Part shown: positions 31,751-36,202 of the stretch, piece by piece
Position numbering within the stretch: the first letter of the stretch is position 1
How the letters are laid out: each line of letters begins with the position of its first letter
DNA from: a virus
DNA length: 41,528 nucleotides
Reading direction: 5' to 3' (one strand)
IMG/VR virus record: IMGVR_UViG_3300042945_000290
The notes under the pieces: generated by a model
Database searches by the model: none
What the model saw: the letters and a program-made list of their open reading frames with translations, nothing else
Told to the model about the DNA's origin: nothing
Translations under genes and position numbers: made by a program

Positions 31751-31891
31751 TTAATAAGCGGATTTATCTTTGTTTAAAATTCTTAAAGCCCAATCCAATC
31801 CGTGATTGAACCCATCCATCCACTCGTAATCCTTATGTTCCTTGGGAAGATGCGTCTTCGCATCTTCTATTCTTTTAATGAATTCTTCCAT
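31751..31891 (-). CDS. small hypothetical protein (46 aa from the internal ATG; 63 aa in the ORF track)
   Basis: A lone minus-strand ORF ending at the terminator, with a protein-like sequence EEFIKRIEDAKTHLPKEHKDYEWMDGFNHGLDWALRIL. The RBS is weak, and a 9-bp hairpin lies inside it. Confidence 0.35.
   Translation of the reverse strand: MEEFIKRIEDAKTHLPKEHKDYEWMDGFNHGLDWALRILNKDKSAY
31846..31876 (+). terminator. Second plus-strand hairpin with a T-rich tail
   Basis: GAAGATGCG-tctt-CGCATCTTC (perfect 9 bp) followed by TATTCTTTT. A third hairpin, GGCTCGC-ctga-GCGAGCC, lies at 31903..31920 followed by TTTCCC. Confidence 0.35.
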
Positions 31892-32018
31892 ATATCTTTC
31901 ACGGCTCGCCTGAGCGAGCCTTTCCCTCCCACCTCCCCTCAACCCTATCAGATTGTTGGTAAGAATTACATGCGTGTCGTTGCACGAGATTGTCAGTGCC
32001 TTGGTTTATTCTACTGGT

Positions 32019-32210
32019 ATGAACGAACTTCCTCCGCATAGATCCTATAGTCAATTGTCTACTTGGCAATCCTGCCCACAAAAATACTATCTTAGCAAAG
32101 TGGCTATGGTTCCAGAGAAACCTGCGGTATATCTTGCTGCTGGTTCTGCTGTCCACTCCATGCTGGAGTGGCTTAACCATGAGCTCTACAAGAAGCAACT
32201 TGACAATTGA
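32019..32210 (+). CDS. Cas4/RecB-like PD-(D/E)XK exonuclease, N-terminal fragment (63 aa)
   Basis: MNELPPHRSYSQLSTWQSCPQKYYLSKV...LAAGSAVHSMLE matches the N-terminal Cys and GSAVH motifs of the family. The frame stops at 32210. No clear SD, so the start is uncertain. Confidence 0.55.
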   Translation: MNELPPHRSYSQLSTWQSCPQKYYLSKVAMVPEKPAVYLAAGSAVHSMLEWLNHELYKKQLDN

Positions 32211-32403
32211 CCAGCGTGGTATACCAAGCAATGAGTGTATCAACTGTGGGTCAAACATACAGGTTATTCGTGCCGTATTCAATAACTATGAATTGGTTAT
32301 GTGGTTTCTTGATTCCTTCTGCGCTGAATGTGGTTCTCCAATGACAGCACCTACCCCTGTGGACAATCCAGATTACAAGGAAGAAGACGATGACCTCTAT
32401 TGA
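32179..32403 (+). CDS. small zinc-ribbon protein (74 aa) between the two nuclease fragments
   Basis: CINCGS...CAECGS cysteine pairs and an acidic tail. GGAG lies 10 nt upstream. It overlaps both nuclease fragments. Confidence 0.45.
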   Translation: MSSTRSNLTIDQRGIPSNECINCGSNIQVIRAVFNNYELVMWFLDSFCAECGSPMTAPTPVDNPDYKEEDDDLY

Positions 32404-33061
32404 TTTGACACAGAAGTGGCTTGAGGTATTTAATGATGCCGTCAAGGAAGTCGAAGAGAAATCTGGTATTCCCTCGACAGAGTGGAAGACGGCTGGGCGT
32501 AAGACCACCTTGCGTCCAGACGGAGAAGATCTATCATTCTGGCAAAGTGATGGACTCAAGCAGGTTGAGGCGTATCATAAATGGTACGAATCATCTGGTT
32601 GGAAAATTGCTAAGATGCCTGATGGTCGTCCTGGAATTGAATGGGCTGCTGATGTTCACTTCGGGGGAACACCAGTTCGCTTTATTGTTGATGCGATCTA
32701 CCAAGTAGGGGAAGACTTGGTAATCGTTGATTACAAGACAGGTTCCAGGACACCATTCGGCATGATACAAGCAGGATTGTATGCATCTGGTATTGAAAAA
32801 GCTTTAGGTGTACGCCCCAAGTGGGGTGCATTCTTTATGACTAGACAAGGTACGCTTGACGATCTTATAGATCTGTCGCACCTAACAATAGAATATTTTG
32901 ATTATGTATTTGGTGCAATGAACCATTCGGTATTGAACGGATGGTTCCCACCATCCGTAGGTGATTCATGTCGTATGTGTTCCTTCCAAGATAAATGCCC
33001 AGCAATGGGTAGCGTAGATTTCCCACTGCAAATACCAACAACCAAGGGAAAGAAAGGATGA
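32390..33061 (+). CDS. Cas4/RecB-like PD-(D/E)XK exonuclease, C-terminal fragment (223 aa)
   Basis: It has its own AAGGAAG RBS. FIVDAIYQ...LVIVDYKTG (D...DxK), QAGLYA, and the C-terminal CRMCSFQDKC Fe-S cysteine triad are present. Confidence 0.75.
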   Translation: MTSIDLTQKWLEVFNDAVKEVEEKSGIPSTEWKTAGRKTTLRPDGEDLSFWQSDGLKQVEAYHKWYESSGWKIAKMPDGRPGIEWAADVHFGGTPVRFIVDAIYQVGEDLVIVDYKTGSRTPFGMIQAGLYASGIEKALGVRPKWGAFFMTRQGTLDDLIDLSHLTIEYFDYVFGAMNHSVLNGWFPPSVGDSCRMCSFQDKCPAMGSVDFPLQIPTTKGKKG

Positions 33062-33067
33062 ACATAG

Positions 33068-33517
33068 ATGACTGAATCTAAGTTCTCATATACAGGCAAG
33101 CTAAACAGCACAGACCTATTCACCGTCCGAGGTGATAGTGCTGAGGAGTTTGCTAACAACATGCAAGCAGCAGTAAATGCAATCAAGGCTGCAACAGAAC
33201 TACAGATCGCTTTAGGTGGTCGTGGTGGAATGACATCAATGGATAGGGCAGTACAAGCTTTAACCGATGGTGGATTAAATCCAACCGTAGTTAGTTCTGG
33301 TCCTACTTCTATTGAAGTAGTCAAAGATAAATATAATAATGAATGGACATATGGACATCCAGATGCACCAGATCTACCAGATGGTCGTGGCAAGTACGCC
33401 AAGAAGAAGGGCGTATCAAAGGCTGGTAAAGCATACGTAGGTTGGTTTGATCCTGCTAAAGGACCAAAGCCATTTACAGTAGGCGCAGTCGAAGCCGAAA
33501 CAATCTGGACTAAGTAA
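33068..33517 (+). CDS. hypothetical protein (149 aa)
   Basis: AAGGA RBS. Located in the replication module. Confidence 0.8.
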   Translation: MTESKFSYTGKLNSTDLFTVRGDSAEEFANNMQAAVNAIKAATELQIALGGRGGMTSMDRAVQALTDGGLNPTVVSSGPTSIEVVKDKYNNEWTYGHPDAPDLPDGRGKYAKKKGVSKAGKAYVGWFDPAKGPKPFTVGAVEAETIWTK

Positions 33518-33520
33518 TAA

Positions 33521-34354
33521 ATGCGTACCTTACTGCAGGTAGTAGGGGTCGAATCTCCAGCAGGGCATGCCCTACCTGAGATTCTCCCTCAACTCACTGG
33601 TAACCAAGTTGTATTCCGTCAGGCACAACTACACTTGGTAGCAGCACAACCAGGTGGTGGCAAAACCATGCTTGCTTTATGGTACGCAATTACATCCAAG
33701 ACCCCAGCATTATATTTTTCAGCAGACTCCGACTCACGGACGATTGCCCTTCGTGCAGGTGCGATCCTAATGGACAAGTCGGTAACTGATGTTGAAAGAA
33801 TGATGGACTCGGAAGCATCTGTCCTCCTAGAAGATGCACTGGCTGATGGTGCTGCACATGTTCGATTTAGTTTTGATCCCTCTCCTTCTTTGCAAGATAT
33901 TGAAGAAGAGATAGAAGCTTGGATTGAATTGCACGGTGCTCCACCCTCAGCAATTTATATTGATAACTTAATGAATGTCGCTGCAGTCAGTGACAATGAA
34001 TGGACAGCATTGCGTGATGCAATGTCTGCTTTTCATTACATGGCTAGAGAATATGAATCAGCATTCATAGTTCTACATCATGTGTCTGAGAACGAAAAGA
34101 TGTCTAAGCCTAACTATCCAGCACCACGAAAGGCTTTGATGGGTAAGGTGTCAGCCTTACCTGAATTAGTATTAAGTGTGGCATTAGATGCCATTGGTAA
34201 TGTATATCGAGTTGCAGTTGTAAAGAATCGCCATGGTAAGGCAGATCCAACTGCAGAAAATTATGTAACTTTATCTGTTGAACCAAGTCATATGAGTTTG
34301 TATAACTCACCTGCTGAATTACAAAGAGCAAGGACGCTTCGACAATGGCAGTAA
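33521..34354 (+). CDS. DnaB-like/RecA-fold replicative helicase-type ATPase (277 aa)
   Basis: Walker A AAQPGGGKT, Walker B AIYIDNL and FIVLHHVSEN. It lacks the DnaB N-terminal domain. Confidence 0.7.
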   Translation: MRTLLQVVGVESPAGHALPEILPQLTGNQVVFRQAQLHLVAAQPGGGKTMLALWYAITSKTPALYFSADSDSRTIALRAGAILMDKSVTDVERMMDSEASVLLEDALADGAAHVRFSFDPSPSLQDIEEEIEAWIELHGAPPSAIYIDNLMNVAAVSDNEWTALRDAMSAFHYMAREYESAFIVLHHVSENEKMSKPNYPAPRKALMGKVSALPELVLSVALDAIGNVYRVAVVKNRHGKADPTAENYVTLSVEPSHMSLYNSPAELQRARTLRQWQ

Positions 34355-34866
34355 TAGAATTAACTGAAGATGAGATCATGGGTGCTCTTAGGTTTATCCA
34401 CAGGGTGAGGGCAAATAAAAAGGAGTTCGATGTTACGGATCGTAAGTTTGATAAAAATAATTCCTCGTATTCCGTTAATCTTATGGGTAGGTTGGGTGAG
34501 GTGGCAGCTGCTCGGCTCCTTGGGGTACCGACGGATGAAACGATTACGCCTGGCGGTGATAACGGACACGACTTGCAGACAGTATTGGGTAAATCTATAC
34601 AGGTTAAGACGTCAACATTATCGCAATTAATATTTAATGCACCAGAATTATTTATATCTGATGTGGCTGTACTTGTAAAATTTTCTGGGGATAAACAACT
34701 TCCACATGTGGATAGTTTGTTTGATGTAATTGGTTGGACAACACGAGAAAACTTCCTTGCTAATCATTACTTACATGACTACGGTTATGGCACTCGGTTA
34801 GTAATGGATGCTAACCAACTACAACCGATAGAGGTACTCATCAATGAAATATCCAGACTTCACTAG
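34345..34866 (+). CDS. hypothetical protein (173 aa), possible PD-(D/E)XK-like fold
   Basis: The GEVAAARLLG...GGDNGHDL...IQVKTS pattern is weakly nuclease-like. Confidence 0.7.
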   Translation: MAVIELTEDEIMGALRFIHRVRANKKEFDVTDRKFDKNNSSYSVNLMGRLGEVAAARLLGVPTDETITPGGDNGHDLQTVLGKSIQVKTSTLSQLIFNAPELFISDVAVLVKFSGDKQLPHVDSLFDVIGWTTRENFLANHYLHDYGYGTRLVMDANQLQPIEVLINEISRLH

Positions 34867-35119
34867 TGCAACTTGCAGAGGAATTGGTTTAGAGTTTTTC
34901 TTTCAAGAGCACAACAATGCTACAAGTAGTGAAGAACGGAAAGCTAAATCAATATGTAAGGAGTGTCCAGTAATGCAAGCTTGTTTAGAATGGGGTCTTG
35001 CCCATGAGTCACATGGTATATGGGGTGGCACTTCTCCGAGAGAGAGAATGCAAATCAGAAAAAAACTTGGTATAGAAGTTAAACAAATATTGGTAAGTCA
35101 TTATGTCAACACCAAGTAA
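34844..35119 (+). CDS. whiB: WhiB-family transcription regulator (91 aa)
   Basis: Four Cys in C-x26-C-x2-C-x5-C spacing (CRG...CKECPVMQAC) and a GIWGG turn. Confidence 0.85.
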   Translation: MKYPDFTSATCRGIGLEFFFQEHNNATSSEERKAKSICKECPVMQACLEWGLAHESHGIWGGTSPRERMQIRKKLGIEVKQILVSHYVNTK

Positions 35120-35872: not shown

Positions 35873-36202
35873 ATGAATCAACCTGAATTTCTTGAAGCAG
35901 TGTTTAATCATTATGGTTTAACCTTGCCACAAGGGGAGAAGTCTATTCTCTGTCCAGTGCATGATGACTCTCGTAAATCTGCTTCAGTTAATTCAGAGAA
36001 GGGCGTCTGGGTATGTTATGCATGTCATGGCAGTGGCTCTGGTATACAGATAGTCATGGCTCGTGAGAACCTAACATACTCAGAAGCTCGCAAGTGGGCT
36101 GATACTCACATAGGAGCAGAGAAGAGTAAAGAGTTTGCCACGCCAGTGCGTGGCAGACGACGAACAAACGGACGGTGGACACCACCAAGATTGCGTAAGT
36201 GA
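35873..36202 (+). CDS. DnaG-type primase CHC2 zinc-finger domain protein (109 aa)
   Basis: CPVHDDSRKSASVNSEKGVWVCYACHGSGSGIQIV matches the CHC2 finger. Confidence 0.7.
   Translation: MNQPEFLEAVFNHYGLTLPQGEKSILCPVHDDSRKSASVNSEKGVWVCYACHGSGSGIQIVMARENLTYSEARKWADTHIGAEKSKEFATPVRGRRRTNGRWTPPRLRK

Follow-up and report, generated by a model that had tools for sequence, protein, structure and literature searches.

Positions 32,019 to 33,061 of the IMG/VR virus record IMGVR_UViG_3300042945_000290 (41,528 nucleotides (nt), the whole of which we call the window) pose the question of whether a Cas4/RecB-like exonuclease that is encoded in two separate pieces can still be a working enzyme, and of what a small zinc-ribbon gene is doing between them. 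A preliminary description of this DNA had weighed a functional split enzyme with a new zinc-ribbon partner, a decayed gene and recoding. The comparative data favour the first of these options as far as the enzyme is concerned, while its second part, the zinc-ribbon partner, is not supported. We consider it probable that the locus encodes a working two-piece 'iron-staple' nuclease with translationally coupled pieces, and that the zinc-ribbon gene (Z) is cargo at the junction of its amino-terminal (N) and carboxy-terminal (C) pieces. On this reading, N and C would be made as separate polypeptides from one transcript by way of overlapping stop/start junctions, and would reassemble non-covalently around an iron-sulfur (Fe-S) cluster ligated by one N-piece and three C-piece cysteines; Z would lie at the N|C boundary as it might at any gene boundary, unneeded to define or rebuild the enzyme. 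The three open reading frames (ORFs) lie in three frames, and an AAGGAAG ribosome-binding site precedes the C piece, all at the positions first proposed for them:

32019..32210, plus strand: N piece of the nuclease, 63 amino acids (aa), frame 0; ATG at 32019, TGA at 32208-32210
32179..32403, plus strand: zinc-ribbon ORF (Z), 74 aa, frame +1; ATG at 32179, TGA at 32401-32403
32390..33061, plus strand: C piece of the nuclease, 223 aa, frame +2 (open from 32345); ATG at 32390, TGA at 33059-33061
32179..32210, plus strand: N/Z overlap, 32 nt, the presumed zone of translational coupling or re-initiation
32390..32403, plus strand: Z/C overlap, 14 nt
32377..32383, plus strand: AAGGAAG, Shine-Dalgarno (SD)-like, for the C piece, 6 nt 5' of its ATG and encoded within the acidic tail of Z
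32165..32168, plus strand: GGAG, possible weak SD for Z, 10 nt 5' of its ATG
32007..32012, plus strand: TATTCT, a -10-like box 6 nt 5' of the N-piece ATG

The nuclease and its break point

The two pieces match consecutive segments of a single exonuclease profile in both Pfam and PHROG. In PDDEXK_1 (Pfam; cut-off 22 bits), the N piece covers profile positions 3-53 (E = 1.7e-7, 31.9 bits) and the C piece positions 86-247 (E = 2.1e-7, 31.6 bits); in PHROG 1870 ('exonuclease'), they cover positions 11-67 (E = 1.2e-5) and 75-292 (E = 6e-58), respectively. In tblastn, N and C each match the same 'Cas4 exonuclease' genes of mycobacteriophages, Gordonia phages and other actinophages, and with these above-threshold matches the Cas4/RecB-like identity proposed earlier is upheld, including the homology of the short N piece. 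A megablast of the region against GenBank phages gave no match. Together the pieces amount to 63 + 223 = 286 aa, which is the full length of P0073, a syntenic and intact metagenomic ortholog (35% identity).

The N piece carries an S-x-S motif, the first Fe-S cysteine (C19, 32073-32075) and the GxAxH helix with H46 (32154-32156), and the C piece carries E84, D101, D114-x-K116, Q127-xxx-Y131 and the triad C194/C197/C203 (32969-32998); D101, D114-x-K116 and Q127-xxx-Y131 align with the intact enzymes. The preliminary description had thus correctly read D...DYK, QxxxY and the cysteine triad in the C piece, and had rightly noted that the four Fe-S cysteines are divided between two polypeptides, with one on the N piece and three (CxxCx5C) on the C piece. 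It had also suggested an alignment with intact enzymes to map the break, and this alignment puts it directly after the GxAxH helix. In the model of the intact P0073 (predicted local distance difference test (pLDDT) 96.4), whose fold matches ACE1 (E = 5e-10), AdnA, Dna2, AddAB, Exo5 and Cas4, the break corresponds to loop 56-63, between helices 37-55 and 64-83, and the cut is accordingly predicted to fall in a surface loop that joins two helices. The nuclease family profile also matches the nuclease domains of AdnA and AdnB by sequence. Profile, motifs, the one-plus-three cysteines and the fold (the last taken from the P0073 model) are all those of the RecB/Cas4-type 'iron-staple' PD-(D/E)XK class. 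Cas_Cas4 (PF01930) itself gave no match above threshold (E = 0.13, 12.8 bits, cut-off 22.7), and clustered regularly interspaced short palindromic repeat (CRISPR) context is absent among the neighbouring genes (DnaB-like, WhiB, primase zinc ribbon); 'Cas4' is here merely the customary phage annotation, not CRISPR-associated Cas4 proper.

The layout is kept in many related viruses. A C-piece search of IMG/VR recovered 80 loci at 79-98% identity from many different samples, and all 80 contain the same three ORFs in the frames N(f)/Z(f+1)/C(f+2). The N-Z-C layout recurs in three more distant loci (L087, 57%; L085, 46%; L181, about 42%), and among the loci counted the N-Z-C layout was seen 85 times, on independent contigs. 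The C-piece clusters P0001-P0072, down to 46% identity, all have at most 232 aa (218-232 aa where full-length), and the first longer relative is the intact P0073. All three ORFs are under purifying selection (median ratio of nonsynonymous to synonymous substitution (dN/dS) 0.018 for N, 0.068 for Z and 0.099 for C; Nei-Gojobori, codons outside the overlaps), the N piece being the most constrained of the three. In the C piece, E84, D101, K116, Q127, Y131, C194, C197 and C203 are invariant and D114 is present in 103 of 104 unique sequences; in the N piece, S9, S11, C19 and H46 are essentially invariant (62 unique sequences).

The junction and the zinc-ribbon gene

The same break also occurs without any insert. 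The closest GenBank records, OX376640 ('LanE43-AprE7', 39.1 kilobases (kb)) and OX376641 ('LanE43-AprF5', 38.9 kb), correspond by name and size to E7 and F5, which were the first 'Ca. Planktophila' phages to be cultivated (PMC10202952). In these phages the nuclease gene is broken at this very loop: the N piece ends in '...YDYDN*' and the C-piece ATG lies 14 nt before that stop. IMG/VR holds 306 stretches that match this Z-less form, and the junctions of 80 such loci consist of ATGA or ATGnnnTAA stop/start overlaps in 37 sequence variants. An exhaustive C-piece search of representatives at 50% identity returned 773 matches, and the best 149 of these comprise 90 intact proteins, 56 C-only proteins (38%) and 3 circularly permuted ones. 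The C-only proteins start at a median of 1 residue (interquartile range -2 to +4) from the C-piece methionine of the window, and 49 of the 56 begin with methionine, so that they represent real site-specific splits rather than contig-end truncations; the intact proteins start at a median of 60 residues ahead of the same position. Searches of IMG/VR for related loci returned none for the intact P0073, the permuted P0165 and the C-only P0168, and one marginal locus for P0161.

Other junctions are loaded with different genes. One unrelated 77-aa ORF lies at the N|C junction of L227 and two unrelated ORFs at that of L184, a high-GC (guanine plus cytosine) phage, while in a very distant lineage (L253 to L263) a Z homolog directly follows the N piece, together with two more ORFs. 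Even within the E7-like group (57-68% C-domain identity), L227 has cargo at its junction whereas L248 and E7 have none, so that cargo is evidently gained and lost where the gene is split already. These comparisons indicate that Z is neither the cause of the split nor a requirement for it. The claim that the nuclease had been split by the zinc-ribbon ORF is therefore not sustained, since the same break is found without an insert (the E7, F5 clade) and with unrelated ORFs.

Z itself has CxxC pairs at residues 20/23 (32236-32247) and 48/51 (32320-32331), a T-x-P-T-P-x-D motif and an acidic tail that ends in an aromatic residue, which agrees with the two CxxC pairs and acidic tail first seen in the middle ORF. 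The family consensus is GIPSxxC-xxCG ... C-xxCGSP-T-PTP-D; among 58 family members C23, C48 and C51 are invariant and C20 is kept in at least 90%, while the stretch that the cysteine pairs enclose has no conserved His or Asn. An AlphaFold2 model (pLDDT 86) predicts a beta-rich zinc-ribbon fold with a short C-terminal helix, and the two Cys knuckles and small beta fold of this model are those of a zinc ribbon. No family in curated Pfam or PHROG accounts for Z (the best Pfam matches are below threshold), and a Foldseek search of the PDB with the model gave no significant match, the best (E = 1.6) being generic zinc ribbons such as Rpb9/TFIIS and MqsA-N. The tail of Z reads ...KEEDDDLY (...DDDEFN in relatives) and is absent from distant family members.

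The Z family comprises 85 clusters of 34-129 aa, all free-standing, in varied surroundings. A member lies between a DnaG-like primase and an SNF2 helicase in L090 and among unrelated small genes in L093 and L094, and in L082, which has an intact nuclease, the Z domain forms the C-terminus of a 179-aa protein near a DnaB-like gene. In E7 the homolog (L182:37257-37609, minus strand) belongs to another operon, a leftward one 5 kb from the nuclease, where it stands by a WhiB-like gene and by the gene of an FmdB-like zinc-ribbon protein of 57 aa. In 58 loci with an intact nuclease a Z homolog is found about 100-200 nt upstream as the first gene of a divergent, leftward operon that also contains FmdB-like zinc-ribbon and HNH endonuclease genes. 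The alignment of distant zinc-ribbon members was too divergent for a locus scan. On the sequences compared, Z is best described as an autonomous gene family of variable position; given how repeatedly it is found close to the nuclease and the replication module, a functional link may exist. That Z is a dedicated new partner of the enzyme is not supported, as the family occurs in other contexts and there are split clades without Z at the junction. In one locus (L185:439-1176, minus strand), the Z homolog stands by an FmdB-like zinc-ribbon protein of 57 aa, and the operon includes an HNH endonuclease of 118 aa. Five longer members (P0133, P0143, P0150, P0151 and P0152; 108-129 aa) begin with a hydrophobic, anchor-like segment (MKWLNRLSLTLIGLLGIG...), which has the look of a membrane anchor and suggests that the domain may be used in quite different settings.

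Several points weigh against a working two-piece nuclease in which Z is only junction cargo. Z occurs near the nuclease at a higher rate than would be expected of a random gene, and at least two distant lineages have it between the pieces; it stands divergently just upstream of the intact gene in the 58 loci named above and within 2 kb of it in L082. The neighbor-joining tree is star-like and poorly resolved, and neither the number of split events nor whether Z arrived before the split can be read from it. The SD of Z sits in conserved N-piece codons (L-E-W), and 23 of 63 loci have no SD there. Finally, separate translation, reassembly of N and C, an inter-chain Fe-S cluster and nuclease activity are all properties that we infer.

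It is possible, though in our view unlikely, that the split nuclease or the adjoining replication/recombination module has in Z a real third component (for instance an assembly factor, a DNA-binding subunit or a regulator), and that the position of Z between the pieces ensures co-expression. Besides its divergent placement about 100-200 nt from the intact gene, its position directly after the N piece in the very distant lineage and its settings beside a DnaB-like gene (L082) and between primase and helicase (L090), this explanation can call on the fact that Z is kept without exception in the N-Z-C clade, over about 42-98% C-piece identity and under purifying selection. In this clade, the acidic tail of Z with its aromatic tip also looks like the C-terminal tips of single-stranded DNA-binding (SSB) proteins and other protein-interaction tails. 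On the other side, large split clades manage without Z at the junction, E7 carries its Z far away in another operon, and other ORFs fill the same position; no N-Z or Z-C fusion exists among the 85 Z-family and about 220 nuclease-family proteins; some members bear the hydrophobic anchor or occur in unrelated contexts; and Z evolves somewhat faster than N and C. In close pairs the nucleotide identity of Z is 77-91%, against 90-96% for its neighbours, without a sharp boundary in sliding identity, and against L010 its synonymous divergence (dS; window positions 32211-32389) is 0.90, compared with 0.28 for the flanks. Sliding identity, with only a modest excess of divergence and no mosaic boundary, gave no evidence for a recent horizontal transfer of Z.

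We also doubt, slightly more strongly, that the insertion of Z itself broke an intact gene in this lineage, in the way that mobE split nrdA in phage Aeh1, with the Z-less splits either independent or left behind when Z was lost again. The neighbor-joining tree interleaves the intact, split and permuted forms, which would fit repeated events, every member of the N-Z-C clade has Z, and inserted genes that split phage genes are known (PMC2988022). Yet the same break, within a few residues, is found in dozens of clusters that are less than 50% identical, most of them without Z, and at the already split E7-like junction cargo may be present (L227) or absent (L248, E7). Moreover, neither a nuclease nor a mobility domain is present in Z, which matches no Pfam family above threshold and nothing in PHROG and is thus not a homing endonuclease of the HNH, GIY-YIG, LAGLIDADG or Vsr-like types, and the gap equals its flanks in GC content (0.44 vs. 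0.45) and has no mosaic boundary.

The nearest parallel is offered by the 'genes in pieces' of the T4 group, namely Aeh1 nrdA/mobE, T4 genes 39/60 with mobA, and gene 43 in Aeromonas phages 25 and 44RR (PMC2988022). As there, the enzyme is encoded as two separately translated cistrons with a small independent gene in the gap, and the overlapping stop/start codons suggest coupling; in the present locus two selected cistrons sum to one enzyme, as in genes in pieces generally. Gene 43 is split without an endonuclease gene in 44RR and with one in phage 25, and the authors suggested invasion of an already split gene (PMC2988022); by the same token, since Z-less split relatives exist, the insert here may have invaded a gene that was already split. 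The differences are that the lodger is a 74-aa zinc ribbon and not a homing endonuclease, that the host gene is a Cas4/RecB-type Fe-S nuclease whose cut separates the ligands of the metal cluster, and that the split is widespread (38% of the close representative clusters) and accompanied by permuted orthologs.

Reassembly and expression of the pieces

Three orthologs from three different samples (P0165, L178:408-1244; P0164, L179:2501-3364; P0174, L180:1549-2409) are circularly permuted: in a single chain they run from the C-piece sequence through a linker some 20 residues long to the N-piece sequence, and a hidden Markov model of the N piece matches them at about residues 225-283 (E = 1e-14 to 1e-24). 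P0164 and P0174 occupy the syntenic slot of the window, with the nuclease followed by a 150-170-aa protein and then by a DnaB-like gene. These orthologs show that the N module probably docks on the C module whatever the connectivity, and, together with the cultivated phages that carry the split, they provide indirect support for reassembly.

Of the four cysteines that hold the one Fe-S cluster of Cas4, the 'iron staple', one is N-terminal and three are C-terminal (PMC4176176). Because one plus three cysteines on a single cluster make the N-terminal module and the C-terminus neighbours in space, the chain can be cut or re-wired there. By analogy, this suggests that in the split forms the Fe-S cluster may bridge two chains. 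We lean modestly towards the view that N and C form a heterodimeric nuclease with an iron staple made in trans, and that the ortholog exists in four states, i.e. intact, split, split with variable cargo, and permuted. A stronger version of this view would have Z recruited as a third subunit within the N-Z-C clade. If the pieces do reassemble, a cluster that bridges two chains would be the structural reason why the split, its cargo and the permutation are tolerated, and the four states would be a natural series for how a metal cluster tolerates chain breakage and re-wiring.

We consider it improbable that the pieces no longer cooperate, with C acting alone as a nuclease without a cluster or N having taken up a new role. 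The catalytic residues do all lie within the C piece, and one study reports that some Cas4 proteins can cleave in vitro without needing the cluster (PMC8610317). Against this stand the strong constraint on N, the strongest among the three ORFs (dN/dS 0.018), the invariance of its cysteine and GxAxH motif and of the C-terminal cysteines, the position of N upstream of C wherever sequence is available, and the permuted forms in which N is rejoined to C.

The start codons within the overlaps are kept. In all N-Z-C loci an ATG or GTG for Z is found 29-32 nt ahead of the N stop, and in all loci an ATG for C is found 11-20 nt ahead of the Z stop. A core SD 4-mer precedes the C start in 48 of 63 unique loci and an SD-like GGAG-type motif precedes the Z start in 40 of 63, against a background of 8% in each case. 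For the N start the picture is different, as 53 of 63 loci have no SD and a TATTnT-like box is conserved 8-14 nt upstream. Leaderless transcripts are common in Actinobacteria, and the N piece may open a leaderless transcript of the cassette or of the replication operon. Promoter and terminator consensus scans gave counts no different from shuffles. In the window, the purine-rich codons of the acidic tail of Z (32370-32400) double as the SD of the C piece.

The reading of the locus as neither intein nor intron is borne out by frame changes with stops, by the agreement of N + C with the intact length and by the lack of any Rfam match within 31864-33300, even at E <= 1; the gap is protein-coding (dN/dS 0.07). 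A split intein was also considered and rejected, as there are no extra residues at the junction and N + C has exactly the intact length, so that no protein splicing is possible. A single transcript with translational coupling or re-initiation would be the most economical account of how the pieces are made.

Recoding, the third of the options first considered, would require programmed frameshifting (two +1 shifts here and one in the Z-less clade) to yield a single-chain enzyme with Z as an internal domain, and we regard it as very improbable. The frames do step +1 and +1 and overlap pairwise, and in the window the Z frame is open from 32023, over 126 codons. On the other hand, Z and C have kept their start codons, and many loci have a stop in the frame of Z 3 nt ahead of its start. 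The tails encoded in the overlaps are the most variable parts of both proteins; comparison of the loci revealed no conserved slippery site in the N/Z and Z/C overlaps, and the Z-less clade alone has its 37 junction variants. Frameshifting was rejected on this variability and on the conserved starts; in addition, no database protein has Z inside the nuclease, and junctions with two or three ORFs could not be bridged in this way.

Decay of the gene and assembly or sequencing error, for which two frame changes within 200 nt have the classic look of indel errors and one related locus has a deletion in N, are effectively refuted by the same layout in about 85 independent contigs, isolate genomes with the Z-less form, dN/dS of 0.02-0.10 and invariant catalytic residues. 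The deletion in question (L050:975-1089) removes 26 aa of the N piece in frame, up to the GxAxH helix, and leaves Z and C normal-looking; this N piece may be an inactivated copy.

Related systems and neighbouring genes

The 'fractured genes' of environmental phages (PMC2677866) share with this locus the order enzyme-N, small gene, enzyme-C in genes of DNA metabolism; those, however, contain split inteins, whereas the present locus has none and its middle gene encodes no endonuclease. Intact actinophage Cas4-family exonucleases (Mycobacterium phage Fred313 gp69, Thermobifida phage P318 orf15 and P0073) have the same motifs, the same predicted fold and the same slot before a DnaB-like gene, and the iron-staple nucleases AdnAB, AddAB, Dna2, Exo5, ACE1 and Cas4 likewise share motifs and predicted fold; all of these are a single chain or a domain of a helicase-nuclease, in contrast to the two chains here. 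In the same host gene family, actinophage Cas4 genes are interrupted by inteins, a kind of selfish element (bioRxiv 10.1101/2025.01.02.630785), but those lie in frame at motif III (EFKT) and splice out, whereas the break described here is about 60 residues from the N-terminus, in a loop, and out of frame with stops. Searches of the papers available to us for split or circularly permuted Cas4/RecB-family nucleases found no report, and a phylogenomics study of Cas4 discarded 'short fragments or disrupted sequences'.

Documented splits of phage genes are few and involve homing endonucleases, and the middle gene without endonuclease function, the divided Fe-S ligands and the permuted orthologs set the present case apart from these. 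A large family of abundant freshwater actinophages, which includes the first cultivated acI/Nanopelagicales phages, commonly carries the split. Annotation pipelines, which call the 63-aa piece 'hypothetical' or miss it and take the C piece for a truncated nuclease, would benefit from its recognition, as would surveys of Cas4-family diversity that discard 'fragments'. The zinc-ribbon family is in turn a widespread and uncharacterised small phage gene.

Downstream of the nuclease, the window contains the following genes:

33068-33517: 149-aa protein with no Pfam or PHROG match, which always follows the nuclease, be it split, intact or permuted
33521-34354: DnaB-like helicase
34844-35119: WhiB
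35873-36202: stand-alone DnaG-type zinc-ribbon protein

The 149-aa protein has a motif like G(K/R)YA...SKAGK.Y.GWFDP.KGPKPF and may be a partner of the nuclease, e.g. an annealing or single-stranded DNA-binding protein. WhiB, the closest relatives and a GC content of 43% point to a low-GC freshwater member of the Actinobacteriota as host, in keeping with the actinophage context proposed at the outset. Two further loci are of note. In one locus of the Z-less clade (L102:179-322, minus strand), the N-piece sequence occurs a second time, close to the beginning of the locus and on the other strand; this copy could be an inverted duplication or a contig-end assembly artefact. A related contig, IMGVR_UViG_3300009164_000147 (L068), carries a C piece that is 83% identical to that of the window, at a different offset.

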